Origin: Phycisphaerae bacterium
GTDB lineage: Bacteria > Planctomycetota > Phycisphaerae > UBA1845
Direction of reading: 5' to 3'
Assembly (NCBI GenBank): GCA_963675765.1
Contig: OY776568.1
Coordinates: forward strand, 2,313,407 to 2,377,406
DNA: 64,000 bases
A model generated the notes under the pieces. The model saw nothing but the letters and a program-made list of their open reading frames with translations. It made no database searches and was not told where the DNA came from. Both the position numbers and the translations under genes were made by a program. Positions 12,240 to 63,762 of the stretch are shown here, one piece after another (position 1 is the first letter of the stretch; each line of letters begins with the position of its first letter).

Positions 12240-12255
12240 CTACTGAGAAACTACA

Positions 12256-12345: not shown

Positions 12346-12469
12346 CGGTCTGGCTTGATCTCCGCCCAACCTGAATGCAAGTTCGCACACCAGCGCAAAC
12401 AGCACCGAAAATTCTACAAACAATGTTAAGACAGAACCTCACCAACAAAAGAAGTGGGAACAGCCAGCC

Positions 12470-24881: not shown

Positions 24882-24943
24882 GAGTTGATCACCGATAGGA
24901 AGCCCTGGCCGTGACCTACGTCCGCCGATAAAGTCATCATTAT

Positions 24944-25034
24944 AGCGTTGTAAGTCCAAGCATAGCGTCCAACAATGAAAATCCGTCGGTGAAAACAGAG
25001 TGGCAGACGCTACACTTGAATAAAGCTTGCTCTG
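24944..25034 (+). repeat. About-90-bp structured intergenic repeat, copy D (forward)
   Basis: agcgttgtaagtccaagcatagcgtccaacaatgaaaatc...cagacgctacacttgaataaagcttgctct. It lies between the TPR gene and the first CNNM gene. Confidence 0.9.
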
Positions 25035-25098
25035 GCTGGGGCACTTGTGGTGCGAGCTGCCTGGTGCCCCGGCTGAGAGGCCGTTTCGGTTCACCCAA

Positions 25099-27335: not shown

Positions 27336-27342
27336 ACACTGT

Positions 27343-27432
27343 AACGCCGCAAGTCCAAACGTAGCGTCAGACCCCGGAACCCACCGGAGAAAACAGGTGT
27401 TCAGCCGCTGCACCTGAATAGAGCTTGCTCTA
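27343..27432 (+). repeat. About-90-bp structured intergenic repeat, copy E (forward)
   Basis: aacgccgcaagtccaaacgtagcgtcagaccccggaacccaccgg...cagccgctgcacctgaatagagcttgctcta. The terminal cta is the stop codon of the STAS gene. Confidence 0.9.
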
Positions 27433-27786
27433 GTCCCAGCAGAAGAAATCGTCCAGCTTGGTCACATGAAGCAGTTCCCGAACATTAGGGCGCAAATTGA
27501 GTACCCGAATGCGACCTTCACGACCCGAGGCCTTCCGCACCGCCAGCATCGCCCCCAATTGCTTCGAACTGATCGCCGGCAGCCCCTCCAAATCAACCTC
27601 TATCTCACACTCAGATAGTTTGCCCGAATGAGACTCGATTACATTCGCCAACATTCGTTCCAGATTGGGAGGGTATTGTTCCCCGGCCTCAAAAAACTCC
27701 TGGTCAAAACGAAATGTAGCCTTCGAAGCCTCACAGGTAACGTGGAATGGAGGGACTTCGATTATCTCCGCCATGATGATCCTCAC
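27430..27786 (-). CDS. STAS-domain protein (anti-sigma-factor-antagonist-like)
   Basis: 118 aa. VDLEGLPAISSKQLGAMLAVRKA...IRVLNLRPNVRELLHVTKL fits the STAS fold pattern. The stop codon is the terminal cta of repeat copy E. Confidence 0.5.
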   Translation of the reverse strand: MRIIMAEIIEVPPFHVTCEASKATFRFDQEFFEAGEQYPPNLERMLANVIESHSGKLSECEIEVDLEGLPAISSKQLGAMLAVRKASGREGRIRVLNLRPNVRELLHVTKLDDFFCWD

Positions 27787-27877
27787 AAACTGAGAAAACT
27801 CGACGCTCGCATATCCATTATGTCTACACAGCCCCAGCCCCGCAAGATCATCTCCCCCCGCCCCACTGAAGCACCGG

Positions 27878-27968
27878 GGCGCCGTTCATCCTGGTGCCAC
27901 AGCAAACAATGAAAACCCTGCAGAATAAACGGGCCTTGAGAGGCTACACCTGAATAGTGCTTGCTCTA
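27878..27968 (+). repeat. About-90-bp structured intergenic repeat, copy F (forward, diverged left arm)
   Basis: ggcgccgttcatcctggtgccacagcaaacaatgaaaac...gaggctacacctgaatagtgcttgctcta. It ends 5 nt before the Smr gene stop codon. Confidence 0.8.
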
Positions 27969-27973
27969 ATCCT

Positions 27974-32932: not shown

Positions 32933-32990
32933 AGCCTGCTCCATCCCTGTTATTGCATAAGTCATTCCGGCGAATGCTGAAACTTGCGAT

Positions 32991-33078
32991 AGCGTTGTAA
33001 GTCCAAGCACAACGTCAAGCGATGAGAATCTATCGGAAGAAATGTGGTGTCAGACGCTACGTTTGGATTAGTAACGCT
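32991..33078 (+). repeat. About-90-bp structured intergenic repeat, copy G (forward, variant with a fully complementary right arm)
   Basis: agcgttgtaagtccaagcacaacgtcaagcgatgagaatc...cagacgctacgtttggattagtaacgct. The two ends form an AGCGTT..TAA.TCCAA terminal inverted repeat. Confidence 0.85.
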
Positions 33079-33080
33079 GT

Positions 33081-33110
33081 AAAAAAGCGGCCTCGAATAA
33101 CCGAGACCGC
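33081..33110 (-). terminator. Rho-independent terminator of pfp
   Basis: The minus strand reads GCGGTCTCG-gttatt-CGAGGCCGC followed by TTTTTT, 38 nt after the pfp stop. It abuts repeat copy G. Confidence 0.75.
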
Positions 33111-34560: not shown

Positions 34561-35066
34561 GATTACTCCTTCCTGACCTCCAACAAGAGGCCATCACTTA
34601 CACATGACCGTCAGCCGCTCCAGCGGCGGCCAACAACCGATAAGACCGCGCCCAATGTCAACCTCCCCAACGCGTCCGACACGCCCCAATATGGACATAT
34701 TTCACACGCTGTCAAGGCGAGCACGCCGCAACAAAACAGAGCATAACCTACTAACCACCAAGAACTTACGCACGCACGCCATAATTGCTACGCCGGTAAG
34801 CGTAACTTCAAAAACAAAACCTCCAGCCAACCTGCAACTCTCATCAACAGATCTCCCAGTAGCAGTCGCACCCACTCGCCGCCATACTCTTACGCCGATT
34901 GGGAATTCTCCTGCAAACACTCTCCCCTGACCCATCACAATCCACACTAGATGCCACCACCAAAAAATCTTCTGTCGATTCTCTGCATTGCGCTATAATT
35001 AGGCCACGAAGCGGAGCGAGGCTCCCTCCAGATTAAGGCTCTGACATGGGCAATCTGGACCGCTAT

Positions 35067-36636
<1,570 letters not shown>

Positions 36637-39295: not shown

Positions 39296-39321
39296 GACCG
39301 CAACCTCTAAAGCGTTACCAC

Positions 39322-39428
39322 AGCGTTATCAATCCAAACGTAGCGCAAACCACCGACGCTCGACCGGAGAAAACCAAGATCCACACGCCCTCGAAAACGC
39401 CGCAACACTCAAGTAACACTCTCCATTA
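39322..39428 (+). repeat. About-90-bp structured intergenic repeat, copy M (forward, with an insertion of about 17 bp)
   Basis: agcgttatcaatccaaacgtagcgcaaaccaccgacgctcgaccggagaaaac...aacgccgcaacactcaagtaacactctccatta. It lies between the ECF sigma gene and its anti-sigma gene. Confidence 0.7.
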
Positions 39429-42350: not shown

Positions 42351-42361
42351 ACCGCTTCTGC

Positions 42362-42452
42362 AGCACTGTTAGCCCAAGCGCAGTATCAAACACAAGAATC
42401 TACGGGAAAAGACCGAGGGGGGCCAAACGCTACACTTGGGCTTATAACCTAT
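42362..42452 (+). repeat. About-90-bp structured intergenic repeat, copy N (forward, diverged right end)
   Basis: agcactgttagcccaagcgcagtatcaaacacaagaatc...ccaaacgctacacttgggcttataacctata. It lies between the convergent MCP and HTH genes. Confidence 0.75.
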
Positions 42453-42502
42453 AAACGAAAACGAGTAAGAGATGCGATTGTTGTACCACTCAGCCATCAA
42501 GG

Positions 42503-43194: not shown

Positions 43195-43404
43195 ATTCCT
43201 AAAAAGGGCGCGGACCATCCCGACTTCCCAAGCCATCCGAGCAGGATACCCCTTGATCGTGCCGATCAGAATGATCCTTTTCCTCCCACACACAATCACC
43301 CACCACAACCCCAACAATACGAACAACTTACGAACATTAAGAGAAATAATATTGACATAACCGGAGAACCAAAGTATGTTAGGAATATGTGCGGGCTACT
43401 GGGC

Positions 43405-43493
43405 CGATAGTCCCCCTCACACAGCGTCAAACAACCCGGACCCTCCGCAGATAACCGGGCGTCAGACGCTGCAAACGAACGATGCCTGCTCCA
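43405..43493 (+). repeat. About-90-bp structured intergenic repeat, copy O (forward, diverged)
   Basis: ...cacacagcgtcaaacaacccggaccctccgcagataaccgggcgtcagacgctgcaaacgaacgatgcctgctcca. It lies 125 nt upstream of the hypothetical gene at 43619. Confidence 0.7.
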
Positions 43494-43618
43494 GCCGCTC
43501 GCACCGTTGGCCGGATTCATACGCTGCCAAATCACCACCCGTCCGTCAGGTGGGAGAATAACCGTACCCGGTGCGTACACCGGATAAGAGGCCCTCACGT
43601 CAGAAAGGAAACGAAGCC

Positions 43619-44836
43619 ATGTCACGCAGAAAGAACCGCAAGATCAGCCGCCGCAAACTCTACGCCAACCGCTCCAACGCCGCCAAGTCAACCGGGCCCA
43701 GATCCGCACGCGGCAAAATCCACGCCTCACGCAACGCCCTCAAACACGGCCTCTTCGCCAAGACCGCTACCCCTATACCCCAACTCGGCGAATCACCCGA
43801 GGAACTCCGCAGCTTCATCACCGAATTCACCCGCGCCCTCAAACCCACAACACCCGCCGAACAGGCACTCGCCCATCGCGCCGCTAATACCTACTATCGC
43901 CTCGCTCGCATCCAGAAACTCGAATCCAATATCCTCTCCGTCATCACCGATACAGATAATCCCAATGCCAAGCCCGCCGCGGCCCGCCTCAACTCCCTAA
44001 TCGCTGATGCCGAAGAGCAGCTCCACAACCTCCACCTCCTCTACACTCGCGTCATCACCGATCCGCTCACCTTTGAAAATCCTTTCTACGAAGACCACGA
44101 ATACCTCACCATCAACGCCATCAACCAGTACCTCGCCCAGCATCCCAAAGTCGACACCAGCGACATTCCCTGGCCAACAGACAACCTCGAATATCGCTGG
44201 CCCGCTCAACCTTGCCCACTGCCCGAACTCGCCGAGGGGTTCCTCACCCACTTCACCGACGATCGCCTCGACCAGGTGCTCCGTGACCACATCGACACCC
44301 TCATTGCAGAGCAAAACGAACTCCTCGAAGACCTGCGCAATCAATTGGCCACCGCCGAGGAGCAACCGGCCATCCCCGACCTCGTCGAACTCGAACGCCT
44401 CTCCCGCTACGAAAGTGCCCTGGACCGCCAACTACACCGTGCCCTCCGCGAACTTCGCCAACTGCAAAAACAAAGCCAACAACCGGCCACCCCCAAAACC
44501 GGCGACCTCACTACTCCTCATCCCTTCGCCGAAGAACAATTGCGCCAAAACGAACCCACCATCGATCAGGACCAGGAATCCGCCGACCTCGCCTTACTTC
44601 CCGGCATCCAACTGCCCGACCAAGCCACCGCCGCCGAAACCGACCCCGAAGAGAAACTCAGAAAATGCCTCCAAATCGCCGCCCAAAACGCTGAAGTCCT
44701 CTGCCAATACGCCCGGGAGACTGACGATGATGACCTCTACGACCCCGACGACGAAGCAACCAACCCCATTACTCAACCGCCAACAGAAAACGAAAAAACG
44801 AACCCAACAACGATCGTCGCCGACCAGGCAGCGTAA
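43619..44836 (+). CDS. Hypothetical protein with a basic N-terminal motif, helical middle and acidic tail
   Basis: ATG 43619 (AGGAAA upstream). The N-terminus is MSRRKNRKISRRKLYANRSNAAKSTGPRSARGKIHASRNALKHGLFA. Later comes LSRYESALDRQLHRALRELRQLQ. The C-terminus is D/E/P/T-rich. I cannot assign a domain. Confidence 0.6.
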   Translation: MSRRKNRKISRRKLYANRSNAAKSTGPRSARGKIHASRNALKHGLFAKTATPIPQLGESPEELRSFITEFTRALKPTTPAEQALAHRAANTYYRLARIQKLESNILSVITDTDNPNAKPAAARLNSLIADAEEQLHNLHLLYTRVITDPLTFENPFYEDHEYLTINAINQYLAQHPKVDTSDIPWPTDNLEYRWPAQPCPLPELAEGFLTHFTDDRLDQVLRDHIDTLIAEQNELLEDLRNQLATAEEQPAIPDLVELERLSRYESALDRQLHRALRELRQLQKQSQQPATPKTGDLTTPHPFAEEQLRQNEPTIDQDQESADLALLPGIQLPDQATAAETDPEEKLRKCLQIAAQNAEVLCQYARETDDDDLYDPDDEATNPITQPPTENEKTNPTTIVADQAA

Positions 44837-44951
44837 ACCGGCTGCTCATCTACTGATCATCTGCGAGCCTTTACAACAAAAAGGCCGGCATCCGAGACTA
44901 CACTCGCATACCGGCCCCCATACTGTCATTGTCTTTGCCCGCAACCGCAGT

Positions 44952-46241
44952 CTAAGCCATTATCGCTGCCAAATCCGCCTTGGGATCACCTGTAGTCAAC
45001 CGCAAGTCAAACTTCTCCTGCAAAACCTTGAATACGTTCGGAGTAATGAATGCAGGCGGATTGGGCCCCAGCGAAATACCCTGAACATTCAAGTACAAAA
45101 GCGTCAAAAGCACCGCCACCGCCTTCTGCTCAAACCAGGAAATAACCAACGTGAGCGGCAGGTCGTTCACCGAACAATCGAATGCCTTGGACAACGCCAA
45201 CGCCACCTGAATCGCACCATATGCGTCGTTGCATTGCCCCATGTCCAACAATCGTGGCAACCCCAACAACTTGCCGTAATCATGACTACGAATTCTGTAT
45301 TTACCACATCCGAGAGTCAGAATAAACGAATCCGCCGGCGTTGCCTCCGCATACTCCGAAAAGTAGTTGCGACCCGGCTCCGCTCCATCACACCCGCCGA
45401 TTACAAAAAACCGGCTTATCTGGCCGTCCTTCACCGCCTGAACGATCGTGCCCGCCAGATCGAGAATGGCCTGCCTGTGAAAACCTACTTGAGATTCCCT
45501 TACCACATCATCCACCAGCGGCCGGCAACTTTTGGCCTTCGCGATCAACGGACCAAAATCGTTGTCTTTGAAACGATGACCGCCGGGCACAGCCGTCACG
45601 CGCGTAGTGAAAACCCTATCGGCATAACTGTCTTTCGGATGCAGAATACAGTTCGTCGTCGCCAGCACCGGCCCCAAAAACGCCTCAAACTCCTTCTTCT
45701 GATCCTGCCACGCTCCTCCGTAGTGCCCCACCAAGTGATTGTGTTTTCTCAACTCCGGATATCCGTGCGCCGGCAGCATCTCCCCGTGCGTGTAAACGTT
45801 TACCCCCGTACCCTTCGTCTGCTCCAGCAGATCACGCAGATCTATCAGATCGTGCCCCGTTACCAGAATGCCCGGCCCCGCCTGAGTACCCTCCTTAACC
45901 GTCACCGGAGAGGGCCTGCCGAACGTCTCCACATGCCCTTCATCCAACATCTCCATCACCCGCAGGTTTACCCGGCCACACTCCAATACCATCTCCAACA
46001 AACTTCCCATATCGAAGTTGACATTGGTCACCGTTGCAAAAAGCGCCTCCTCAACAAACGCGTCAACTTCCTCATCTACCTTGCCCAGCCGCCGAGCATG
46101 ATGTGCATACGCACACATCCCCTTCAAACCATAAAGGAGAGTCTCCTGCAAACTCTGCACATCCTCGTCCTTGCCGCATACACCTCGCGCCGTCTGACAT
46201 CCCGTCCCGCCGGCAGCCTGCTCACATTGATTACAGAACAT
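44952..46241 (-). CDS. hcp: Hybrid-cluster protein / hydroxylamine reductase, short (about 430 aa) form
   Basis: MFCNQCEQAAGGTGCQTARGVCGK is the N-terminal Cys cluster. HGEMLPAHGYPELRK, GGCDGA and DMGQCNDAY motifs are present. It lacks about 120 aa present in the E. coli protein after the N-terminal domain. Confidence 0.9.
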   Translation of the reverse strand: MFCNQCEQAAGGTGCQTARGVCGKDEDVQSLQETLLYGLKGMCAYAHHARRLGKVDEEVDAFVEEALFATVTNVNFDMGSLLEMVLECGRVNLRVMEMLDEGHVETFGRPSPVTVKEGTQAGPGILVTGHDLIDLRDLLEQTKGTGVNVYTHGEMLPAHGYPELRKHNHLVGHYGGAWQDQKKEFEAFLGPVLATTNCILHPKDSYADRVFTTRVTAVPGGHRFKDNDFGPLIAKAKSCRPLVDDVVRESQVGFHRQAILDLAGTIVQAVKDGQISRFFVIGGCDGAEPGRNYFSEYAEATPADSFILTLGCGKYRIRSHDYGKLLGLPRLLDMGQCNDAYGAIQVALALSKAFDCSVNDLPLTLVISWFEQKAVAVLLTLLYLNVQGISLGPNPPAFITPNVFKVLQEKFDLRLTTGDPKADLAAIMA

Positions 46242-46398
46242 GTTCCCTACGCTCCTGATTCGTTAATGGTCTCACCTGGCGATCGACAGCCCTTCGTCCG
46301 ACAATTCCGGTCCCTCAGCAACAATGCCCCGAGAACCATCATCGGGCCGCCGGTAGCGCCACTAAACATCAGTCTCCCACACAGAAACCACCCAGTCA

Positions 46399-46412
46399 TT
46401 GATCTGGATCAA
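46399..46412. promoter_or_regulatory. FNR/CRP-family binding site upstream of hcp
   Basis: TTGATCTGGATCAA is a perfect TTGAT-N4-ATCAA palindrome. Its centre is about 164 bp upstream of the hcp ATG, in the hcp / coiled-coil divergent region. Confidence 0.6.
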
Positions 46413-46540
46413 CTGCAGTCAATGGTTAGGTGTCAACGCCCTCTATTACAGCCATCCATCGCAGACTCTTTCCCCGCTCTCCTGCAACCGACACGCCTGC
46501 ACCGATGTATCAACAGACAGCGGACATCCTTCGCCGGAAG

Positions 46541-46562
46541 ATGTTCACTCGCAGATGAACAT
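46541..46562. promoter_or_regulatory. Inverted repeat just upstream of the coiled-coil gene
   Basis: ATGTTCA (46541-46547), 8 nt, then TGAACAT (46556-46562). It ends 36 nt before ATG 46599. Confidence 0.35.
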
Positions 46563-46598
46563 GTCAGTCCACTAGACGCCCTATTCAAGGAGACCATC

Positions 46599-47741
46599 AT
46601 GCCACACTACGTATTCTCCACTGTGACTGTCCTGGCAGTATTGACCGTTGGCAACCCTGCCCCCGCCAATGCCGGAGACAACAATGCACCACAACCACGA
46701 CAGTACCAGGCAAACATCAGCCATGAGGCCAAGATGGCCATCAGCAACCTCGACGACCTCGCCGAATTCTATGAAGCCCGACAGCGCTGGGATGAAATGG
46801 AACAGACACTGCAACGCCGTGCCGACTTACCCCTAATCCTCGCCCAGGTCCGCCTCATCGCCGAAAACCAGGACGCTCAGTCTGCACTCCTCGCGTACTA
46901 CCGACTAACCAACCAGCCTGCTCGCGAGTTGGAAATAACCGTCACCCAACTCGACGACCAAATCAGAGCTTCAAGAAAGAGGCTTGCCCAACTGCACGTC
47001 AACCTTGCCGAAACCCAAGCACAGCTCGAACAGATGGAAAACCACCACAAGGAACTCAGCCAGCAACGCCACCACCTTCAACAGCAACTTGAGCATCTTC
47101 ACCATCAACAACTGCTGACACAGCATCAAACCTTCGAGGAGCGACTGGACCAACTGCGCCTGAACATCGAAAGCTTCGAGAAGCAGAAAGAGCTCACCGA
47201 ACAAGCCATAGCAGACACGAACACAACCGAGAACGAACGTCACCAACTTCAGTTACTCTCCGAACGGCTCTCCAACAAACTGCATCTCCTGCATTCTGAA
47301 CTTCGCCACACCCAACTTGAGGCCAACGAGCACAAAAGTCGCGTCGACGAAGTTGACCGGGCCAAGAAACTCCATAAGGCCGAAACACTGCAACACTCTC
47401 TCCAGAATTGGCAAACAACACAGGAAGACCTGCTCCACGAAGTGACACTGCTGCTTGACCGTATCGAGGAAATCAATCAACACTGTAAGTCCGCCTCCCA
47501 GGCTATGGAAAAACTACGACCTCAAAAGCATACGCCAAAGCATCCTGGAAACTCGCTTCAAACGCGCGACCCACAGACAAGCAAGCGATCATCGGCGGCA
47601 ATCACGCCCAAACCCGGCAACCGCAAACACCCTGCCCACAAAGCAAAGACACCGAAAAGCAAGAAGAGCCCCAGAAGGAAAACGAACGAAAAACAGCCTG
47701 AGAAACCTGAACCTCCGGTCTCCTTGCAGGGAACTATCTGA
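46599..47741 (+). CDS. Secreted coiled-coil protein, Gln/His-rich, with a Lys/Pro-rich basic tail
   Basis: It is embedded in the 3' end of the artefactual 1244-aa track ORF. ATG 46599 is preceded by AAGGAG. The signal peptide is MPHYVFSTVTVLAVLTVGNPAPANA. Long heptad-like Q/H/L/E stretches (HHLQQQLEHLHHQQLL). The tail is ...KHPAHKAKTPKSKKSPRRKTNEK. Confidence 0.65.
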   Translation: MPHYVFSTVTVLAVLTVGNPAPANAGDNNAPQPRQYQANISHEAKMAISNLDDLAEFYEARQRWDEMEQTLQRRADLPLILAQVRLIAENQDAQSALLAYYRLTNQPARELEITVTQLDDQIRASRKRLAQLHVNLAETQAQLEQMENHHKELSQQRHHLQQQLEHLHHQQLLTQHQTFEERLDQLRLNIESFEKQKELTEQAIADTNTTENERHQLQLLSERLSNKLHLLHSELRHTQLEANEHKSRVDEVDRAKKLHKAETLQHSLQNWQTTQEDLLHEVTLLLDRIEEINQHCKSASQAMEKLRPQKHTPKHPGNSLQTRDPQTSKRSSAAITPKPGNRKHPAHKAKTPKSKKSPRRKTNEKQPEKPEPPVSLQGTI

Positions 47742-47972
47742 CTATTCAAAGGTCACTGAAATCGCCTCTGACAAACTCGTAAACTGCGAACATTTGAAAG
47801 GAATCCAACACACTCGTTAGAATCAACAATCAATCAACAGCGACCCCATGGCCCACGATTGACATCATCCTGGCGCCACGGTTGAATTAGAGTGAAAGAC
47901 ATGGCAAACGGCCCGGCGGCCCCAACAACCGCCGTCGGCTGCTTCTGAAAATTGGCACAGTGAAAGCATCAA

Positions 47973-50948
47973 ATGGACGAGTGGCACGACAGCCCGGCAC
48001 AAGATGACCTGAACGTATATTTTTGTGGTTTCCACAATCTTATGCCGTACAGGGTGCAACACATACTCCTTGTATCAAGCCTCTACGAGTCCTTTATCCT
48101 CGAAGGCGAAGGGCTGCTTACCGAACTCATTACCAGCGAGTACCTCGATCTCAACCTCAGCCATGCTCCCCGCGTCACTCGCGTCTCCACCGCCCAGGAA
48201 GCGCTCGAGTTCATCGGCAAGGAACCGGTCGATCTCGTCATCACCATGACCCGCCTCGGCGGCCAACCGGTAACTGATTTCGCCGAGGCAGTCAAATGGC
48301 GAAAACCCGATCTCCCCGTAGTCGTTCTCGCCGATGAACCTCGCGCCATTCCTCCCGACGATGCCTTGCGCGACTGCGAACATATCGATCGTGCCTTTGT
48401 CTGGAATGGGGACGCTAAAATCCTGCTGGCTATCATCAAGTATGTCGAAGACCAAGTGAACGCCGAACACGATACGCGCATCGGCAATGTTCGTGTTCTC
48501 ATCGTTGTGGAAAATTCAGTTCGCTTCTACTCCACATACCTTCCACTCATCTATACCGAATTGATGAAACTGACACAGTCCCTCATAGCCGAAGGTGTCA
48601 ATCTCACTCATCGACTCCTGCGCATGCGCGCGCGTCCACGAGTACTGCTGGCTGAAACCTATGAAGAGGCCTGGACTCTCTACACCAAGTTCAGTGAGAA
48701 TCTGCTTGGCGTAATATCCGATATACGTTTTCCCAAAGAAGGCAAGCTGGACGCCGGCGCCGGCCTGGAGTTCACCCGCCGCGTACGCGAAAACGAACCC
48801 TACCTCCCCGTTTTGCTCCAATCATCTGACCCCGGCTACTCTCAAGCCGCCGCCCAGCTCAATGCATGCTTCCTCCATAAAAACTCCCGACACCTTCTGC
48901 GCCAACTCAGTGAGTTCATTCTCGGCAACCTCGGCTTCGGGGACTTCATCTTCAAACTGCCAGAAGGCCATGAAGTCGGCCGGGCAAAGGATCTCCGCGA
49001 ACTGGAGGAAAGGCTCCACAGTATTCCAGCAGCATCCCTCAAGTTCCACGCAGCACACAACCACTTCAGCAACTGGCTCATGGCCAGAACTGAATTCGAA
49101 CTCGCTGCTCGGCTGCGACCGGCAAAAGTAAGCGACTTCTCCGATATTGAGGAAATGCGAACATACCTCATTCAGGCCCTCGCCGAGTTTCGTGAAAAAA
49201 CCCAAACAGGTGTCATAACGGACTTCTCCCCTCAGAAGTTCGATGTGACCAGCAGCTTCACCCGCATCGGCGGAGGATCCCTCGGTGGAAAAGCCCGCGG
49301 ACTGGCCTTCGTCAACGCCCTCATTCGTCGCCATAACCTGAGCAACCGGTTCGACGATGTCCGCATATTCGTCCCCAAGACGGCCACCTTGGGAACCGAC
49401 GTCTTCGATGAATTCCTCGATCATAACAACCTCCGCAGCTTCGTTGCCGAAGACGTTCCCGACGAACGCGTCTCCCGTATGCTTCTCGCCGCGAAACTGC
49501 CCCGCACTATCTACGCAGACCTCACCGCCTTCCTCAGACTTGTGCAATACCCCCTCGCCGTTCGCTCCAGCGGCCTCCTCGAAGACTCCCACGGCCAGCC
49601 CTTCGCCGGCATCTACTCAACCCATATGCTGCCCAATAACCACCCCGACATCTCCGTCCGCCTGGAGCAGCTTTGTGATGCCATCAAACGGGTCTATGCT
49701 TCCACATTCTTCCAGGCCTCCAAACGCTATATGGAAGCGACCGGACGCAACCCCGAAGAAGAGAAGATGGCCGTCATTCTCCAAGAGATTGTCGGCAGCC
49801 AATACGGAACACGCTTTTACCCCACCTTCTCCGGCGTCGCCCGCTCTTACAACTTCTACCCCAGCGGTGACATCGACCCCCATGAAGGTGTCGCCAGCGT
49901 AGCTCTCGGCCTTGGGAAAATGGTTGTCGAAGGAGGACAAAGCCTAACCTTCTCCCCCGCTCACCCCGAAGTCCTCCCCCAGTTCGCCACAACCGAAGAT
50001 ATGTTGGCTAATTCCCAACGGCAGTTTTTTGCCCTCGACACCGGCCACCCCGAGGTCTACCCTACCGCTGACGCCGAAGCCAACCTCACTCTCCACGATC
50101 TCGATATAGCCGAAGCCGACGGAACACTGACCCCCATCGGCTCCGTATTCGACCCCGACAACGACGCCGTGTACGATAGCCTCCGCCGCAACGGCCCGCG
50201 ACTCGTAACCTTCTGCCACATACTAAAGGCCAACCTCTTCCCCCTATCAGAAATCCTCCAAATCCTCCTGCAAATCGGAGAAGAAGGTACCGCCGGCCCC
50301 GTAGAAATCGAATTCGCAGTCAATATGAACACCAAACCGATGGAGTTTGGGTTTCTCCAAATTCGCCCAATCATCCTCAACGAGGAATATGATGATGTAC
50401 GAGTCGATGAAATCAAACAGAAAGACGCCATCTGCCTCAGCGGCAAGGCCCTGGGCAACGGCCAGATCCACGACATCCGCGACCTTGTTTATGTAAAACC
50501 ACAATCATTCGACTCCAGCTACACAAGAGAAATCGCCGCTGAAATCGGTCAACTCAACAACCACCTCGCATCCAAACAGCGACCCTTCGCCATAATAGGC
50601 CCCGGCCGCTGGGGCACCGCTGATCGCTGGCTGGGTATTCCTGTAACCTGGACTCAGATCTCCGGCGCCCGCGTGATTGTGGAAACCACATTGGAAAACT
50701 TCATGGTCACCCCTTCTCAGGGAACCCACTTCTTCCAGAACCTTACGTCCCTGGGAGTCGGATACTTGACCGTTGACCCCAATCTCGAACAGGGAAAAAT
50801 AGACTGGGACTGGCTGGACAAAAAGCCCGCAGAAAGTGAGACCGGCTTCATCCGTCACCTGCGCTTCAACCATGAACTCGAAATAAGACTCGACGGCCGA
50901 CGGCAGAAAGGAGCCATCCTCAAACCCCATCGAAGAAAACGAGACTAA
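47973..50948 (+). CDS. Two receiver-like domains fused to a PEP/pyruvate-binding (PPDK_N, ATP-grasp) domain protein
   Basis: 991 aa. The first receiver-like domain lacks the acceptor Asp (DLVITMTRLGG). The second has it (LLGVISDIRFPKEG). GGGSLGGKARGLAF and AVRSSGLLEDS are typical of the PEP-synthase/PPDK N-terminal nucleotide-binding domain. No phosphohistidine swivel or PEP-utilising C-domain was recognised. Confidence 0.75.
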   Translation: MDEWHDSPAQDDLNVYFCGFHNLMPYRVQHILLVSSLYESFILEGEGLLTELITSEYLDLNLSHAPRVTRVSTAQEALEFIGKEPVDLVITMTRLGGQPVTDFAEAVKWRKPDLPVVVLADEPRAIPPDDALRDCEHIDRAFVWNGDAKILLAIIKYVEDQVNAEHDTRIGNVRVLIVVENSVRFYSTYLPLIYTELMKLTQSLIAEGVNLTHRLLRMRARPRVLLAETYEEAWTLYTKFSENLLGVISDIRFPKEGKLDAGAGLEFTRRVRENEPYLPVLLQSSDPGYSQAAAQLNACFLHKNSRHLLRQLSEFILGNLGFGDFIFKLPEGHEVGRAKDLRELEERLHSIPAASLKFHAAHNHFSNWLMARTEFELAARLRPAKVSDFSDIEEMRTYLIQALAEFREKTQTGVITDFSPQKFDVTSSFTRIGGGSLGGKARGLAFVNALIRRHNLSNRFDDVRIFVPKTATLGTDVFDEFLDHNNLRSFVAEDVPDERVSRMLLAAKLPRTIYADLTAFLRLVQYPLAVRSSGLLEDSHGQPFAGIYSTHMLPNNHPDISVRLEQLCDAIKRVYASTFFQASKRYMEATGRNPEEEKMAVILQEIVGSQYGTRFYPTFSGVARSYNFYPSGDIDPHEGVASVALGLGKMVVEGGQSLTFSPAHPEVLPQFATTEDMLANSQRQFFALDTGHPEVYPTADAEANLTLHDLDIAEADGTLTPIGSVFDPDNDAVYDSLRRNGPRLVTFCHILKANLFPLSEILQILLQIGEEGTAGPVEIEFAVNMNTKPMEFGFLQIRPIILNEEYDDVRVDEIKQKDAICLSGKALGNGQIHDIRDLVYVKPQSFDSSYTREIAAEIGQLNNHLASKQRPFAIIGPGRWGTADRWLGIPVTWTQISGARVIVETTLENFMVTPSQGTHFFQNLTSLGVGYLTVDPNLEQGKIDWDWLDKKPAESETGFIRHLRFNHELEIRLDGRRQKGAILKPHRRKRD

Positions 50949-52189
50949 CGCACTTGCCCGTCACCATGCACTACATACCGACTGGTGGTCAACTCTTCCA
51001 ACCCCATCGGACCGTAGGCATGGATCTTCGATGTGCTGATACCGATTTCCGCACCAAGACCTAATTGAAAACCATCATTAAACCGCGACGAGGCATTCAC
51101 CAATACACACGACGAGCCCACTCGCCTTATGAACTCAGCTTGGCGTCCACCATCGTCACTGACAATCACATCAGTATGATTCGAACCGTACTTGGCAATA
51201 TGTCCAATGGCGGCATCTATCCCATCAACAACCTTCATGGCCACTATGAGATCGAGAAACTCCCTTCCCCAATCATCATCAGCGGCAGCCACAGCATGCG
51301 GAACAACACTGCATACCGCGTCATCGCCCCTAATCTCCACGCCGGCATCAAGATATCGCTGCCCGAGAACCGGCAAGAACCTCTCGGCGACGGACTTATG
51401 AACCAGAACACACTCGGCCGAGTTGCAGGTAGCGGGCGCCGAAGTCTTGGCCGTAACCGCTATCTCAGCTGCCTTGGCGGGATCGGCGAATTCATCGATG
51501 TATATGTGGCACACGCCATGGAAATGCTGCACCATGGGAATCCGAGAATGTTGATGGACAAACTCGATCAAGGCAGTGCCCCCCCTGGGAATAACCAAGT
51601 CGATATACTCATTCAAACCCAGCAGATATCGCAACTCCTCCCTGTCCGAGGACACCATCACCTCGACCGCCCCCTCGGTCACACCGCCGGCCTTCAAGGC
51701 ATCCTTGGCAATCAGCGCCAGCAGCGCGTTTGACTTATCCGCCTCCTTCCCTCCTTTGAGGAAACAAGCATTGCCAGCTTTGAAGCACAAGCCAAACGCG
51801 TCAATAGTCACATTGGGGCGAGCCTCATAAATCATCGCCACTACGCCCAGCGGAATACGCACCTTCTGCACATGGAGGCCCGACTCACAGCGATAATCCT
51901 TCACCACCGCACCAACGGGATCAGGGAGCCGTGAGATGATGCGCAATCCTTCAGCCATCTGATTCAATCCGGCTTCCGTTATCTGGAGCCGCTTAAGCTT
52001 TGGCGAAGGTAGGCCGCTGCCCTTGGCAATCTGCATATCCACAGCATTAGCGGCAAGTACTTCGCTTTTCCTTTTTACAAGCGAATCAGCCAAGCCACAC
52101 AGTATTGTGTTTTTACTATCAGTATCCAGATAGGCCAGCTCGCGTGAAGCCTCGCGAGCCGCTATCGCTTTTTCCTTAATATCACGCAT
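50945..52189 (-). CDS. proA: Gamma-glutamyl phosphate reductase
   Basis: ATG 52189 gives MRDIKEKAIAAREASRELA.... Aldehyde-dehydrogenase-type core (IPRGG, NSAECVLVH). It is downstream of proB. The longer track ORF start is rejected. Confidence 0.9.
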   Translation of the reverse strand: MRDIKEKAIAAREASRELAYLDTDSKNTILCGLADSLVKRKSEVLAANAVDMQIAKGSGLPSPKLKRLQITEAGLNQMAEGLRIISRLPDPVGAVVKDYRCESGLHVQKVRIPLGVVAMIYEARPNVTIDAFGLCFKAGNACFLKGGKEADKSNALLALIAKDALKAGGVTEGAVEVMVSSDREELRYLLGLNEYIDLVIPRGGTALIEFVHQHSRIPMVQHFHGVCHIYIDEFADPAKAAEIAVTAKTSAPATCNSAECVLVHKSVAERFLPVLGQRYLDAGVEIRGDDAVCSVVPHAVAAADDDWGREFLDLIVAMKVVDGIDAAIGHIAKYGSNHTDVIVSDDGGRQAEFIRRVGSSCVLVNASSRFNDGFQLGLGAEIGISTSKIHAYGPMGLEELTTSRYVVHGDGQVR

Positions 52190-52226
52190 AATCTTCACTC
52201 TTGCACGAAATCTGGTTTTTACCAAT

Positions 52227-53363
52227 TCAGTCTCGCAACACCACAAGATCATCGCGATGAACAACCTCTTCCATGTACCTATATCCCAGCAACAAGGCAA
52301 TCTCGGCACACTTGTGGCCGCGGATTCTATCCACTTCATCCGAGGCGTAAGAGGCGAGCCCTCGGGCAATCAGTTGCCCGTTGTCCTGGCAGACCTTGAC
52401 AACAGCCCCTGCGGAGAACCTGCCATCGACGGCCAATATTCCCGACGGCAGCAGGCTGGCATTTCGTCTCACGATAGCTTCGGAGGCTCCGGAATCAACG
52501 ATAAGGGTCCCCTCTGGCCGAGCAACTGATGCAATCCACCGTCGCCGGGCATCGAGCTTACTAACGCGGGGGGCAAAGAGTGTCCCCACGGGCCGGCCTG
52601 CGAAAATGTCGCTCAAGACTCCGTTTCGCCTTCCACCGGCGATAATCGTCGGCACGCCGGCATCACCGGCCAAGACAGCAGCGTCAACTTTTGTCTTCAT
52701 TCCGCCGATGCCGGTTTCACTTTTAGCTGCCTGAATATGGCCATGTGCACTTTCAGTGGCCAACACCATTCGGATCAGCTCGCCGTGTGGTCCACCGGAG
52801 CGTAGCCCTTCGACATCAGTAAGCATTATAAGGAGATCGGCCGAGATTAGCGTTGTTACCAGAGCAGAAAGGTGGTCGTTATCGCCGAGTCTGATTTCGT
52901 CGTAGGAAACGCTATCGTTCTCATTAACTACTGGAACGATACTTCTAGCCAGAAGAGTTTGCAGGGTATGCCGGGCATTGAGATAGCGTCCGCGGCTATT
53001 GATGTCGTCAGCGGTGAGTAGCACCTGAGCCACGTGGATTCCGGCTCGTGCAAACACGGTGGACCAGGCATTCATAAGGGTCTGCTGTCCGATGGCAGCG
53101 GCGGCCTGCCGATCAACTATAGTACGAGGCATGCGCTGCAATCCCATGGCCGCAAGTCCGGAGGCAACTGCGCCGCTGGACACAATGACAACATCCCGGC
53201 CAGCGTTTTTGAGGGCAATCACTTCTTTTCCTAGTCGCGTAATGGCCCGCTTATTCAGTTGCCCTGCTTTTGTCAGGACTGCGCTACCGATTTTGATCAC
53301 TATCAATCGTGAGCGTTCGACATACTGTCTGTTGCAGGCTTTCCTTTCGTTTTCCAATGCCAA
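52227..53363 (-). CDS. proB: Glutamate 5-kinase with a PUA domain
   Basis: 378 aa. IVIKIGSAVLT, VIVSSGAV and VNENDSV are amino-acid-kinase motifs. C-terminal PUA-like domain. TTG start at 53363. Confidence 0.9.
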   Translation of the reverse strand: MALENERKACNRQYVERSRLIVIKIGSAVLTKAGQLNKRAITRLGKEVIALKNAGRDVVIVSSGAVASGLAAMGLQRMPRTIVDRQAAAAIGQQTLMNAWSTVFARAGIHVAQVLLTADDINSRGRYLNARHTLQTLLARSIVPVVNENDSVSYDEIRLGDNDHLSALVTTLISADLLIMLTDVEGLRSGGPHGELIRMVLATESAHGHIQAAKSETGIGGMKTKVDAAVLAGDAGVPTIIAGGRRNGVLSDIFAGRPVGTLFAPRVSKLDARRRWIASVARPEGTLIVDSGASEAIVRRNASLLPSGILAVDGRFSAGAVVKVCQDNGQLIARGLASYASDEVDRIRGHKCAEIALLLGYRYMEEVVHRDDLVVLRD

Positions 53364-53513
53364 TAAACTCCTGCAAAGGCCAATTAAACCAGTAAAGGGT
53401 CATCTTGTTTTTCACCAAAACTCTGCAATCGTTGCTTGAAAACTGAGTGCGGCACGGTTAGTTTGAGGATCCTGTCTCACATTGGCATAATAAGTCCGTA
53501 GGAGGATCATCTC

Positions 53514-54518
53514 ATGGACGCGTCAAGCGTTTCCTCACTGACAACGGTCGCCCAGCATATCATCGAACAACAGCGAAATCATCCCACAGCTTCCGGGCAG
53601 TTTAGTTGGCTGCTCAGCGGCGTCACGCTGGCGACGAAGATCATCGAGTCTTACGTCCGTCGCGCTGGTATTGCGGATGTATTGGGAGCCACAACGAGCA
53701 CGAATGTGCAAGGCGAACAAGTGCAGAAGCTGGATCAGATTGCCAACGAGACAGTTAAGCGCTGCCTGGGGTATAGGGGAAACGTCGGTATTTTGGTATC
53801 GGAGGAGGAGGACGAGCCAAAGGTAATCAAGGAGGCAGGAAGGGAAGGGAAGTACATTGTGCTTTTCGATCCCCTCGACGGATCAAGTAACATTGATGTC
53901 AACGTTTCGGTAGGGACGATATTCTCGATCTTGCAGGTTCGCGACGATCTTGACGAAGATGCTTCAGCCGAGGACCACACGCTTCAGCCGGGGATTAACC
54001 AATTGGCTGCAGGTTACGTCGTTTACGGCAGCAGTACAGTATTGGCTTACACAACCGGCGACGGAGTGCACATGTTCACTCTCAACCCGGAAATAGGGGC
54101 ATTTGTGCTACATCAAGAGCGCGTTACGATGCCACCAGAGGGAAAGATGTACAGCATCAACGAGGCCTACAAAGCGAGTTTTCCCAAGGGGGTACGTGAT
54201 TATCTTGATTGGGCAAAACAAGACGATTATTCGCTGCGATACATCGGATCACTGGTCGCCGATTTTCACCGAACACTGCTTCGCGGCGGGGTTTTTCTAT
54301 ATCCCCCCACAGCCAAGCAGCCGGAGGGCAAGTTGAGACTGCTTTACGAAGCCAACCCCATGGCTTTTCTTGCAGAGCAAGCGGGCGGAGCAGCGACGGA
54401 CGGCAAGGTACGCCTAATGGAAAAACAGCCCACAAAGTTGCACGAGCGGACGCCACTGATCATAGGCAGCAGGAAGGAAGTATCCCGAGTCCATGATTTC
54501 CTGAACGGCGACAAATGA
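53514..54518 (+). CDS. fbp: Fructose-1,6-bisphosphatase class 1
   Basis: 334 aa. AGGAGG RBS. Motifs are FDPLDGSSNIDVNVSVGTIFSI, LRYIGSLVADFHRTL and GGVFLYP. Confidence 0.9.
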   Translation: MDASSVSSLTTVAQHIIEQQRNHPTASGQFSWLLSGVTLATKIIESYVRRAGIADVLGATTSTNVQGEQVQKLDQIANETVKRCLGYRGNVGILVSEEEDEPKVIKEAGREGKYIVLFDPLDGSSNIDVNVSVGTIFSILQVRDDLDEDASAEDHTLQPGINQLAAGYVVYGSSTVLAYTTGDGVHMFTLNPEIGAFVLHQERVTMPPEGKMYSINEAYKASFPKGVRDYLDWAKQDDYSLRYIGSLVADFHRTLLRGGVFLYPPTAKQPEGKLRLLYEANPMAFLAEQAGGAATDGKVRLMEKQPTKLHERTPLIIGSRKEVSRVHDFLNGDK

Positions 54519-54527
54519 CGACATCAA

Positions 54528-56141
54528 TCAAATAGGAACCTGCTCGCTCCCAACGAAGCTGCCAACGGGCCGATCACCACATCGCAATTCATCGCGCATT
54601 GCAAGCCAAACGGAAAGTTGATCACGTCCTATTGGATTATTTCCAAGGCACGCGATTTCGATAGCAGAGGCGGCGTTTCCCAAATACGCAGCACCGACAA
54701 GCGAGGCTCCGGCAGCCAGAGACATAGATGCCACCGTAAGCATAGCATCACCACAGCCAAGTCTATCAAGGCATGAATTAGCAAATGAGGGAAAGTGTTC
54801 GCTTAGCAGCCGGTCACCCCACTCTTCAGATCGAGGGTCCTGAGAGGGGCGTTCAAAGACAACCAATCCCCGTTTTCCCAATGTGCAAAGTATGTGACGA
54901 GCCTGATTTTGATTGATAAGTTCGTAGGCTACTGACGACAGTCCAGACTCAAAGTCATGCAGAGTAGTTCTCAACTCTCTCTCGGTGGGGCAAAGGAGAT
55001 CTACATGGCGGTAGTTCAAGAGGTTACCACGGGAGCCACTCACATCACCCGCGAGGACGGGCACATTAGCTCGCAGACACGGCAGCACTCTAGAGAGAAG
55101 AGAGGCATTCACGGCGCCGTAACCGAAATCGCAGATGATGGCGACGTCAACATCACGGGACAAGCGTTCGAGGATAGCGGACACGTTCTTCTCTGCGTGT
55201 GAATCGAGAGGAGTGTTTTCGCCGTGCTCCACTTTGAAGATCTTGTTTTCCTCAACGAGGTAGCGGGTCTTGTGGACTAGATGTGGTCTGGTTTTTACTG
55301 CAGCCAGTTCGACACCTTCACTTGCCAGGATTGAATTTACTCTGGCGCTGCACTGATCCCGAGCCACATTACTGACCAGAGTCACATGGGCTCCCATTGC
55401 CGCTGCGTGGCGAGCCACTATTGCCGCCCCACCCAGGTACTCCTGCTCGCTAAGTTGTAGAAGTGAGAGCATTGGCGATTCTGAAGCGACATCAACCGCA
55501 TCGCACGAGACATAGCGATCAACAATGACGTCACCCAGGACTGCCACCTTCATACCGCGGAACCTGCTGACGACATTGAGGAGAGAGGCCTGCTCAAGAT
55601 CGTGTCGTTGGCAGATGAGTTTCAGTCGCTGGGCGGCCAGTTGCTTGTCTCGTGGGAGCGAAGCTATCAACTCACTGGAACTGAAGACAACATCGCCACT
55701 GGAAAAGATCACGCGGCCGCCGTAAGCCTCGACCTCTGAGCGTTCGGCGAGGAACCTGGGATCGTCAGATGTTTCGTACTCTCGGCCTTTGACATAGACG
55801 TCGGGTTTGACGGCACGGAGCAGGTCCACTGCTGTCGGAGCGCGGTCAACGCAAACGTAGTCGACAAACTCAAGAGCGGCGAGTGATTCAGCTCTCAATT
55901 CCTCTGGAATATAGGGTCGCTGATCCCCCTTGTTGATCTGCGAATCACCTGTGACAGTTACAACCAAAATGTCGCCCTGGCGGCTAGCGAATTCCAAGTA
56001 TCGCAAATGTCCGGGATGAACAATATCGAAGCAGCCATGGCACTGCACCACGGTCAATCCGTCTTGCCGTCGCTCCTCCAGAACAGTAAGTAAAGCATTG
56101 CGTTGTAAGATTTTGCGGATATGGGTAGCGGAATCCTTCAT
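54528..56141 (-). CDS. Bifunctional cytidylyl/adenylyltransferase-like (N-terminal) + PfkB-family sugar kinase (C-terminal); HldE-like but in reversed domain order
   Basis: 537 aa. The N-terminal GCFDIVHPGHLRYLEFA is the HxGH nucleotidyltransferase motif. The C-terminal ribokinase-like domain ends with DRLGCGDAM (DTxGAGD-type). Confidence 0.75.
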   Translation of the reverse strand: MKDSATHIRKILQRNALLTVLEERRQDGLTVVQCHGCFDIVHPGHLRYLEFASRQGDILVVTVTGDSQINKGDQRPYIPEELRAESLAALEFVDYVCVDRAPTAVDLLRAVKPDVYVKGREYETSDDPRFLAERSEVEAYGGRVIFSSGDVVFSSSELIASLPRDKQLAAQRLKLICQRHDLEQASLLNVVSRFRGMKVAVLGDVIVDRYVSCDAVDVASESPMLSLLQLSEQEYLGGAAIVARHAAAMGAHVTLVSNVARDQCSARVNSILASEGVELAAVKTRPHLVHKTRYLVEENKIFKVEHGENTPLDSHAEKNVSAILERLSRDVDVAIICDFGYGAVNASLLSRVLPCLRANVPVLAGDVSGSRGNLLNYRHVDLLCPTERELRTTLHDFESGLSSVAYELINQNQARHILCTLGKRGLVVFERPSQDPRSEEWGDRLLSEHFPSFANSCLDRLGCGDAMLTVASMSLAAGASLVGAAYLGNAASAIEIACLGNNPIGRDQLSVWLAMRDELRCGDRPVGSFVGSEQVPI

Positions 56142-56168
56142 CGCCGACTGTTCCCCTGCAGGATGGCC

Positions 56169-56257
56169 TAGAGCAAGCTCTATTCCAGTGAAGGACTACA
56201 GCCCTGGTCTCTCCAGGCTTCAATGATAGTCCACGCCGCCAACCCCTCGAGAACGCC
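56169..56257 (-). repeat. About-90-bp structured intergenic repeat, copy H (reverse)
   Basis: The + strand reads tagagcaagctctattccagtgaaggactacagccctggtctctccaggc...gagaacgcc. It lies 27 nt upstream of the kinase-fusion gene start. Confidence 0.75.
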
Positions 56258-56482
56258 ATAGGCATACCAATACTGGCCTATGCAGTTTTATCGGTCCTGG
56301 GCCGCAATCGCTGCAGAGCAACTCTCGGCTGAGGGACTTTGGTTGCTTTTGGCCCTCGAATACCTACCATGATCCGATTCGTTACACAATGGTGTGCCGA
56401 TTGGAAGGATCTAATAGCGGTAGTAATACGTACTGATTGAGGCATTCATCCAGCCGTTCAGAGAATTACGTCTACCTGTCAC

Positions 56483-56573
56483 TAGAGCAAGCTCTATACG
56501 AGTGTAGCGTCAGGGCCCCGGCTTATTCCGGTGGGTTTCATGTTTGACGCTGCATTTGGGCGAGTTAGGCACT
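56483..56573 (-). repeat. About-90-bp structured intergenic repeat, copy I (reverse)
   Basis: The + strand reads tagagcaagctctatacgagtgtagcgtcagggccccggcttattccggtgggtttcatgtttgacgctgcatttgggcgagttaggcact. It lies 36 nt upstream of the first LptF/G-family gene. Confidence 0.9.
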
Positions 56574-56609
56574 GAGGCAAGGTGACAGCTTGGAGACTCG
56601 CCACAGGCC

Positions 56610-59379: not shown

Positions 59380-59594
59380 AGTGGCCATGAATCTCGGTCA
59401 ACACAGACTCCCTTTTTTCGTTGTCTGATGTAGAGGTCCAGCGGGAAGCGATTTGCCCGGAATGAGGCACATGGTCTGTCCTCTGGTGAGCATGGAAGGC
59501 AAAAGAAAGCCGGACGCCGATTTCCTTCCTCAGGTCCCTTGGCAGCAATCGGACTCTGCCGAGGGAGATCGGACGTCGATCTCGGGGCACGTTA

Positions 59595-59685
59595 TGTAGC
59601 AAGCTCTATCCAAGTGCAGCGGCTGAACGTCCGTCTTCCCCGGTAGATTCCGGTGGTTTGACGCCCCGTTAGGATTAGCAGCGTT
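59595..59685 (-). repeat. About-90-bp structured intergenic repeat, copy J (reverse)
   Basis: The + strand reads tgtagcaagctctatccaagtgcagcggctgaacgtccgtcttccccggtagattccggtggtttgacgccccgttaggattagcagcgtt. It lies between the second LptF/G-family gene and tdk. Confidence 0.9.
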
Positions 59686-59736
59686 ATGTGAGATAGTTGC
59701 TTCACATTCGATGCTCCGGCTGGCACAATCTGGGCC

Positions 59737-60372: not shown

Positions 60373-60464
60373 GAGAAATAAGCTCCATTCAGGTATAGCC
60401 TCTGAAGCCTGGCTTTCCCCAGTGGATGGTCGACGCTTGACGCCACGTTTGGATTAACAACGCC
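60373..60464 (-). repeat. About-90-bp structured intergenic repeat, copy K (reverse)
   Basis: The + strand reads gagaaataagctccattcaggtatagcctctgaagcctggctttccccagtggatggtcgacgcttgacgccacgtttggattaacaacgcc. It begins 27 nt after the tdk stop. Confidence 0.8.
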
Positions 60465-60685
60465 ATCTGCCCTCTCTTCAGACGTAGAGGAGAAGGTGTC
60501 TGACAGAGGAGTACGTGGAAGAAATCGGTGTTGACATGAGTGTCAGTCAACGGCTACTGAGCAAGCCTACTTTGAATGTAACCTTTGTAGTAGTCTTTTC
60601 TTGGGCGCATTCTCACTGTCTGACACCACCATTGAAGAAGTGACCTTCCACGAGAAGGATGATCGAAGCGATGTGACAGGGCGAG

Positions 60686-63760: not shown

Positions 63761-63762
63761 TT

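Follow-up and report, generated by a model that had tools for sequence, protein, structure and literature searches.

A 64,000-nucleotide stretch of the genome of a Phycisphaerae bacterium (assembly GCA_963675765.1, contig OY776568.1, positions 2,313,407 to 2,377,406; hereafter referred to as the window) contains 15 copies of a structured intergenic repeat, and the orientation of these copies switches once, together with the sign of the nucleotide skew. This orientation pattern is real and goes beyond chance. Within the limited sequence of the window lineage, skew predicts the orientation of the repeat better than the strand of the adjacent genes does, which suggests, without proving it, that the repeat's spread or survival is tied to DNA replication. 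Other genomes that carry the repeat show no sign of a polarity common to the whole family, and the general picture is that the replication-linked interpretation is partly supported.

Copies of the repeat and their orientation

The repeat, a unit of approximately 95-100 nt, was defined by searches with TAGAGCAAGC, a repeat scan and a seed profile run with nhmmer. The strand on which it reads TAGAGCAAGC is termed S. In the window, S lies on the minus strand in eleven copies between 2.1 and 43.5 kb and on the plus strand in four copies between 56.2 and 60.5 kb. The copies are listed here with the strand of S; the 5′ module and the syntenic relative L047 are described further below.

Copy A, 2145..2241, minus: within the rnf operon, in the rnfG-rnfE interval, sense; 5′ module degenerate, with the rnfG stop codon as the TAG of its 5′ end (2236-2241)
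Copy B, 6918..7012, minus: between apbE and a pseudopilin-like gene, both on the minus strand
Copy C, 12250..12346, minus: between convergent genes, with the right end of an IS5-family insertion sequence (IS) 5 nt away
Copy D, 24938..25036, minus: between two plus-strand genes; the sole copy antisense to both neighbors, following the skew
Copy E, 27338..27434, minus: its 5′ end (27430-27434) provides the TAG stop codon of a STAS gene (27430-27786, minus)
Copy F, 27875..27970, minus: between the minus-strand genes for STAS and Smr; missing from the orthologous intergenic region of L047
Copy G, 32985..33081, minus: between the genes for HAD (plus) and phosphofructokinase (PFK, minus); missing in L047; located where compositional block I gives way to block II
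Copy H, 35061..35159, minus: the top-scoring copy, in the divergent region between the genes for PFK (minus) and GDH (plus)
Copy I, 39315..39400, minus: partial, 5′ module lost; between anti-sigma and ECF sigma factor genes, both on the minus strand
Copy J, 42357..42455, minus: 5′ module degenerate; just downstream of an MCP gene (plus)
Copy K, 43398..43494, minus: the last of the eleven copies on this strand
Copy L, 56166..56263, plus: 5′ module intact, 3′ half degenerate; in the divergent region between hldE (minus) and lptF (plus)
Copy M, 56480..56574, plus: in the same divergent region as copy L
Copy N, 59593..59689, plus: between lptG and tdk, both on the plus strand
Copy O, 60377..60467, plus: in the convergent region between tdk (plus) and aroB (minus)

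The arrangement in two blocks, eleven copies on the left, four on the right and none in between, had been put forward in the original prediction and was borne out by every search. A profile hidden Markov model (HMM) derived from the window and one built exclusively from other genomes (both run with nhmmer) as well as a covariance model searched without filters returned the identical 15 copies on identical strands. None of the three placed a copy between 43.5 and 56.2 kb or detected a credible copy in the opposite orientation anywhere in the window. A detection bias arising from training on one orientation was ruled out, because the HMM built solely from other genomes recovers the same copies on the same strands. 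The sequence TAGGGCAAGC at 42581, which was considered as a hidden opposite copy, is a chance match inside a small helix-turn-helix (HTH) open reading frame (ORF). Three additional remnants that had been claimed for the window found no support, as none of them reaches E ≤ 5 with the covariance model; with nhmmer and the window-derived HMM, only the match at 60559-60642 (plus strand, E = 0.08) is marginal, and the others, among them 44881-44909 (E = 9), amount to noise.

Pairwise identity among the copies is 60-85%. The probability that all 15 copies agree with the sign of the skew is p ~6e-5 if orientations are treated as independent coin flips and p ~3e-3 if neighboring copies are given the 73% concordance that is observed in other genomes.

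Orientation, strand composition and gene strand in the window lineage

Raw GC skew amounts to -0.2 to -0.48 until about 52 kb and to approximately +0.07 to +0.1 past about 56 kb. At fourfold degenerate sites, plus-strand skew in genes of both strands ranges from -0.1 to -0.84 on the left and from +0.15 to +0.42 on the right, and since genes of both strands share the same sign, the asymmetry must be mutational and independent of gene strand. The change point for G versus C at fourfold sites lies at 50969..51248 (100:1 support interval), with a maximum-likelihood position of 51.1 kb, and the share of G in G+C at these sites is 0.19 to its left and 0.61 to its right. The original prediction had set the switch at about 53 kb; this position has to be corrected, whereas its location in the copy-free interval is retained.

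The sample for the window lineage comprises about 85 kb with 21 copies, i.e., the 64-kb window and a 21-kb locus (L046) that was assigned to the same lineage on the basis of a 100% identical IS and the same repeat subfamily. Genes were called with a codon-usage model and checked with Pfam and NCBIfam. All copies in the window (15 per 64 kb) and in L046 (6 per 21 kb) are extragenic or overlap only stop codons. S resides on the G-rich strand in 15 of 15 cases in the window. In L046, where the combined fourfold skew of -0.16 (z ~-4.7) stems mainly from minus-strand genes, S is found on the minus strand, which is the G-rich one, in five of the six copies. The perfect polarization noted in the original prediction holds for the window itself, but the polarity is imperfect once the exception in L046 is included.

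For window and L046 taken together, the sign of the skew predicts the orientation of S in 20 of the 21 copies, while the strand of the upstream gene does so in 15 and that of the downstream gene in 13. In convergent and divergent regions the gene strand gives no prediction of orientation, and here the sign of the skew is right for 11 of 12 copies (one-sided p = 0.003). On the available sequence, skew is therefore the better predictor of orientation. The original prediction had stated that the strand of the adjacent gene accounts for only about 10-11 of the 15 copies in the window. This figure is appropriate for the upstream gene, which is co-oriented in 11 of 15 cases, but at least one neighbor is co-oriented in 14 of 15, with copy D as the only one that is antisense to both. 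Seven window copies sit between co-directional genes (six in sense orientation plus the antisense copy D) and eight in convergent or divergent regions.

Architecture of the element

The near-invariant 5′ module, CTAGAGCAAGCTCTATTCAAGTGTAGCG, contains a 5-bp hairpin (P1). A second stem of approximately 15 bp (P2) has the feet GTAGCG...CGCTAC, and its arms, which are spaced 40-45 nt apart, enclose an inner hairpin that is lineage-specific. The 3′ tail of the element terminates in GCTATAG. Common to all lineages is the consensus ...AAGTGTAGCGTC...GACGCTACACTTG..., with GTAG as the 5′ foot and CTAC as the 3′ foot. Across 43 copies from several genomes, pairing amounts to 88% in P1 and 84% in P2, compared with 26-42% for slid partners, and compensatory changes in the stems exceed those in shuffled controls.

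On S, G.T pairs outnumber A.C pairs in P1 and P2 by 73:18 in the window lineage and by 31:10 elsewhere, ratios that may be inflated because the covariance-model alignment favors G.U pairs. The excess in the window lineage is what would result from mutational pressure (C to T and A to G) on the strand rich in G and T. G.U pairs were therefore rejected as proof of an RNA, since strand-specific mutation bias yields the same excess in this lineage. The ratio of 31:10 is more telling than that of 73:18, since S is found on either strand elsewhere. Pairing on the S strand itself appears to be preserved throughout the family, which suggests that the element acts as a single strand, be it RNA or single-stranded DNA (ssDNA). 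Rfam yielded no match at gathering thresholds for the whole window and none at E ≤ 1 for the region from 24.8 to 28.1 kb, which contains three copies. A tRNA match for the repeat was not obtained either, and identity with a known RNA family was ruled out on these grounds.

The terminal inverted repeat (TIR) of the element is just 7 nt long and imperfect (CTAGAGC / GCTATAG), and no target duplication is evident in the flanks of the copies. The flanks have a single constant feature, the (C)TAG that marks the 5′ edge. Of 42 copies, 22 have the TAG within the CTAGAGC of their 5′ module as the end of an upstream ORF that comprises 60 or more codons; among the window copies, only A (rnfG) and E (STAS) do so. 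The frequent placement on gene stop codons hints at (C)TAG as a possible target. That targeting of stop codons gives rise to the polarity was rejected, because only copies A and E make use of it in the window. A hairpin at the 3′ end, AGCGTTACACGCT, occurs in a single lineage, represented by the metagenome-assembled genome (MAG) JAJDDV.

Relationship to known repeats and mobile elements

Judged by its sequence features, the element is an undescribed, probably non-autonomous palindromic family of Phycisphaerae that resembles repetitive extragenic palindromic (REP) sequences. The closest known kind are REPs, bacterial interspersed mosaic elements (BIMEs) and REPINs with their REP-associated tyrosine transposases (RAYTs, TnpA_REP), especially the "double-foot" long REPs (PMC6006769; PMC3733652; PMC3333891). 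GTAG/CGTC tags and double-foot long REPs as well as Planctomycetes Y1 genes flanked by atypical hairpins have been described (PMC3733652; PMC6006769). Like REPs, the repeat is a high-copy palindrome confined to extragenic DNA, carries GT[AG]G at the 5′ foot and CTAC at the 3′ foot of its hairpin with an adjoining CGTC tag, occurs for the most part behind genes and between convergent ones, and forms clusters of mixed orientation in some genomes (L002, L046). Its presence is variable between lineages and an IS is inserted beside one copy (copy C). It differs from REPs in its length of 95-100 nt instead of 20-40 nt with a short loop, in the 40-45-nt interior with a hairpin of its own and in the extra 5′ hairpin module, whose conservation extends beyond species boundaries; REPs, by contrast, tend to be species-specific. 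Moreover, the window copies are mainly single and asymmetric, and the sequence available does not reveal a RAYT gene, while REPs have a cognate single-copy RAYT flanked by copies. In the literature searched, we found no report on a replichore polarity of REPs.

With IS200/IS605 elements and palindrome-associated transposable elements (PATEs), the repeat shares bounding by a hairpin, the lack of an evident target duplication and one apparently active strand. An orientation bias related to replication would be a further likeness to IS200/IS605, for which it is documented and attributed to the lagging-strand template as the site of insertion (PMC3971601; PMC6006769). Unlike IS200/IS605, the repeat was found without tnpA or tnpB and without a full-length parent element. 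Among PATE features, the 5′ hairpin is present and no variable duplication is seen, but the two ends lack similar subterminal hairpins, the 3′ hairpin being restricted to the one lineage mentioned above. A consistent orientation is seen in 20 of 21 copies of the window lineage and not in five other genomes (11 versus 13).

ERIC, Correia and BOX sequences are intergenic repeats that are co-transcribed with neighboring genes. The repeat resembles them and MITEs (the miniature inverted-repeat class of transposable elements) as a lineage-variable, structured intergenic sequence of about 100 nt. It differs from MITEs in its short, imperfect TIR and in the absence of a variable target duplication, and its ends are unlike those of the IS5-family IS in the window, so that it does not show the features of a DDE-type MITE. 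Derivation as a MITE from the IS5-family IS of the window was ruled out, because the ends are unrelated (IS TIR AGTCGTCCCTGAA). FtsK-orienting polar sequences (KOPS) and Chi sites resemble the repeat in that their orientation flips with the replichore. They are, however, 8-mers under genome-wide selection and present in all relatives, whereas the repeat is an insertion of 100 nt that is missing from close relatives and non-polar in other genomes.

Distribution of the family and insertion status of the copies

A scan of species-representative genomes with AGCAAGCTCTATNCNNGTGNAG listed at least 44 loci. Among the matches listed, about 36 of 44 loci reside in six MAGs from Phycisphaerae/Planctomycetota, and the family is present in at least six Phycisphaerae MAG species (carriers include CAZWWW01, JACKHG01, JAUXGE01, JAJDDV01 and JAJRYY01). 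Across these MAGs, the 28-nt 5′ module and the feet of P2 are almost invariant and the interior is lineage-specific. Clusters of mixed orientation are found at loci L002, L007 and L036. BIME-like tandem or inverted clusters or head-to-head pairs were also observed, at L002 3144-3472 and L046 5458-5679.

No copy is present in 80 metagenome loci (842 kb in total) encoding relatives of the window phosphofructokinase. One of the loci studied, L047, is a syntenic relative of the window in which the gene order STAS-Smr-RNaseD-ComEC-HAD-PFK is kept. The intergenic regions that hold copies F, G and H in the window are empty in L047. As the repeat is missing at orthologous sites, the copies are best understood as insertions and not as ancestral gene-linked signals. 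The filled intergenic regions of the window and the empty ones of L047 are too diverged to be aligned for determination of the insertion ends.

The composition switch within proA

The polarity of the switch at 51.1 kb is origin-like in that the G-rich strands diverge. The change point falls within the last ~300 nt of proA (minus strand), where there is no intergenic DNA. The proA gene is full-length according to NCBIfam, and its stop codon overlaps by 4 nt with that of a convergent gene (47973-50948, plus). A cluster of DnaA boxes is absent: the window contains no perfect box, and boxes with one mismatch are scattered. Neither dnaA nor dnaN is annotated among the window genes near the switch. 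An origin at the switch is therefore not supported, given its location in coding sequence and the lack of clustered DnaA boxes. A recombination joint or another boundary is equally possible; what lies at 51.1 kb may be an origin, a recombination joint or the end of an inversion. The left region of L047 has the same skew polarity as the window, albeit without hyper-skew, which argues for the asymmetry being a long-standing property of the strand.

An 18-kb block extending from 33 to 51.1 kb is hyper-skewed, with plus-strand fourfold C at ~0.55, G at ~0.10 and a GC4 skew of -0.57 to -0.81. It spans genes of both strands, with steps near 32.6-33 kb and, abruptly, inside proA at 51.1 kb. The flanking region from 0 to 33 kb has a weaker fourfold skew of approximately -0.25 to -0.49. 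A long-read metagenome contig (L001, ENA ERZ21831251 ctg7190l) corresponds to window positions 53009-64000 and originates from the same strain (99.5% identity, with indel errors). Its start at 53009 is 1.9 kb away from the skew switch, which may be fortuitous or may reflect a break in the assembly close to a structural boundary.

A replication-linked interpretation and its alternatives

Standard reasoning identifies the G-rich strand as the lagging-strand template. As the parental template of the lagging strand, it would be the strand most exposed as ssDNA. The element may be inserted into, or preferentially retained on, ssDNA at the replication fork in the manner of IS200/IS605 elements with their Y1 HUH transposases. 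The orientation of S would then record the direction of the fork, and the flip between 43.5 and 56.2 kb would follow the change in strand asymmetry at 51.1 kb. Precedents exist for individual steps. Single-strand transposons of the IS200/IS605 type insert their active strand into the lagging-strand template (PMC6006769; PMC3971601), an orientation bias linked to replication has been described for IS200 and IS200/IS605 (PMC3971601), and the in vitro substrate of RAYT is REP DNA in single-stranded form (PMC3333891). We tentatively prefer this account, in which a REP-like family is placed on the lagging-strand template and its orientation tracks the fork, the direction of replication being deduced from skew; we would place it slightly short of an even chance. 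As to the replication-strand-specific behavior originally predicted, the structured nature of the repeat with its REP hallmarks, the mutational character of the asymmetry and the fact that 20 of 21 copies carry S on the G-rich strand are in line with it, but the polarity is not seen in other genomes.

Several observations speak against this account. In the other genomes (36 loci from five to six genomes; loci of 8 kb, which are weak proxies for replication direction), the orientation of S matches the sign of the fourfold skew in 11 cases and is contrary to it in 13, and at loci where both gene strands give the same skew sign, about five cases match and seven do not. Opposite copies are located only 2 kb apart in L017 and occur within the clusters in L002, L007 and L036. 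On contig 13 of JACKHG, opposite copies are 40 kb apart, and both loci have negative fourfold skew. S is sense in eight and antisense in eleven copies in tandem regions, and neighboring copies are concordant in 11 of 15 pairs (73%). Orientation elsewhere tracks neither skew nor gene strand. Even in the window lineage, where the sample covers just ~85 kb, one copy in L046, a member of a head-to-head pair, is opposite. The switch is positioned in coding DNA devoid of origin features, and the four copies on the right could have been flipped passively with their segment. Furthermore, no Y1_Tnp domain, RAYT or IS200/IS605 tnpA was detected among the ~40 window proteins scanned (the sequence available covers ~1.5% of the 5.45-Mb source genome), and tblastn with RAYT and IS608 TnpA queries, a weak probe, gave no match in related Phycisphaerae loci. 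An apparent RAYT in L029 turned out to be a chance pattern match inside a PemK-like gene of a betaproteobacterium. The possible inflation of the G.T counts by the alignment belongs here as well.

The element could instead be linked to transcription, working as an RNA (for instance as a stabilizer in 3′ untranslated regions or a terminator) or through its stop codon and kept in sense orientation, with the polarity as a by-product of the co-orientation of most genes with replication. Tandem regions of the window lineage, with eight sense copies and one antisense, the position of copy A within the rnf operon, the closure of upstream ORFs of at least 60 codons by the 5′ TAG in 22 of 42 copies, the G.U-tolerant pairing retained on S and the preference for convergent over divergent regions elsewhere (11 versus 4 copies) all fit such a role. 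It is nevertheless unlikely: the tandem regions elsewhere (8 sense, 11 antisense) do not conform to it, copy D is antisense to both neighbors, copies H, L and M, being located in divergent regions, cannot be 3′ elements, the copies in convergent and divergent regions still follow the skew in 11 of 12 cases, and Rfam gave no match even at E ≤ 1. We consider it similarly improbable that the pattern is of historical origin, i.e., that a local burst in one orientation was followed by inversion or import of the right block (51.1-64 kb) and that no continuing link with replication exists. The very sharp switch inside an intact proA, as would be left by a homologous-recombination joint, the unequal magnitudes of skew on its two sides with a separate hyper-skewed block at 33-51.1 kb, the end of the independent contig L001 at 53.0 kb and the concordance of neighbors elsewhere (11 of 15 pairs) without a link to skew could be explained in this way. 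On the other hand, the unrelated locus L046 from the same lineage obeys the same rule in five of six copies, identities of only 60-85% among copies are at odds with a recent local burst, the eleven left copies cover two compositional blocks, and L047 retains the skew polarity of the left block.

A polar DNA signal, in which a host protein binds the element or its 14-bp palindrome TAGAGCAAGCTCTA and orientation relative to the movement of the fork or a translocase is under selection as for KOPS or Chi, would account for the near-invariance of the 28-nt 5′ module in at least six species while the remainder diverges and for the near-perfect skew polarity in the window lineage. However, other genomes with the same module show no polarity, copies are missing from close relatives, known polar motifs are 8-mers, and a 100-nt element with about one copy per 4 kb and lineage-variable presence behaves like selfish DNA, so that we regard selection for such a signal as very unlikely. 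Random orientations with a coincidental pattern are conceivable for a sample as small as ~85 kb and 21 copies, but the p values of ~6e-5 (independence) and ~3e-3 (neighbor autocorrelation) and the replication of the pattern in L046 make chance an extremely unlikely cause.

How REP-type repeats spread is still a matter of debate. RAYT enzymes cleave REP DNA in vitro when it is single-stranded, but to our knowledge coupling to replication in vivo has been shown solely for IS200/IS605 elements. Origins and replication are poorly mapped in Planctomycetota. If the replication-linked account is true, the near-complete replichore polarity would constitute a natural record of coupling between REPs and replication and would offer an inexpensive way to trace fork direction, inversions and recombination joints in this phylum. 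A farther-reaching version appears rather doubtful; it would hold that, in a genome of extreme strand asymmetry, a REP-like family reports fork direction near-perfectly and provides the first genomic evidence of REP mobilization on the lagging-strand template, and that the flip in proA together with the 18-kb block marks an unconventional replication boundary. Should the polarity prove to be confined to the region or to depend on gene strand, the family would be one more undescribed intergenic repeat.

Neighboring features in the window

The first 6912 nt of the window contain the rnfBAEGDC operon, followed by apbE. The IS5-family IS next to copy C (10693-12244) has a length of 1552 bp, encodes DUF772 and DDE_Tnp_1 domains and is bounded by the TIR AGTCGTCCCTGAA. 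An identical copy is present at L046 9867-11418, and the source genome contains at least five copies. The fourfold skew of the IS (+0.11) is unlike that of its neighbors, which points to a recent insertion.

Between 42503 and 43142, a small HTH-XRE ORF overlaps an ORF of 141 aa of unknown function, and the two possibly form a toxin-antitoxin pair. A non-coding, AT-rich stretch of 260 nt (43143-43400) is located directly upstream of copy K. The region from 43500 to 47900 consists of short minus-strand ORF fragments and an antisense ORF of 1244 aa (44007-47741) without a Pfam match; it could be a pseudogene or could reflect frameshifts or recoding. The gene for a hybrid-cluster protein in this region (44952-46241, minus) lacks about 134 N-terminal residues of the model.

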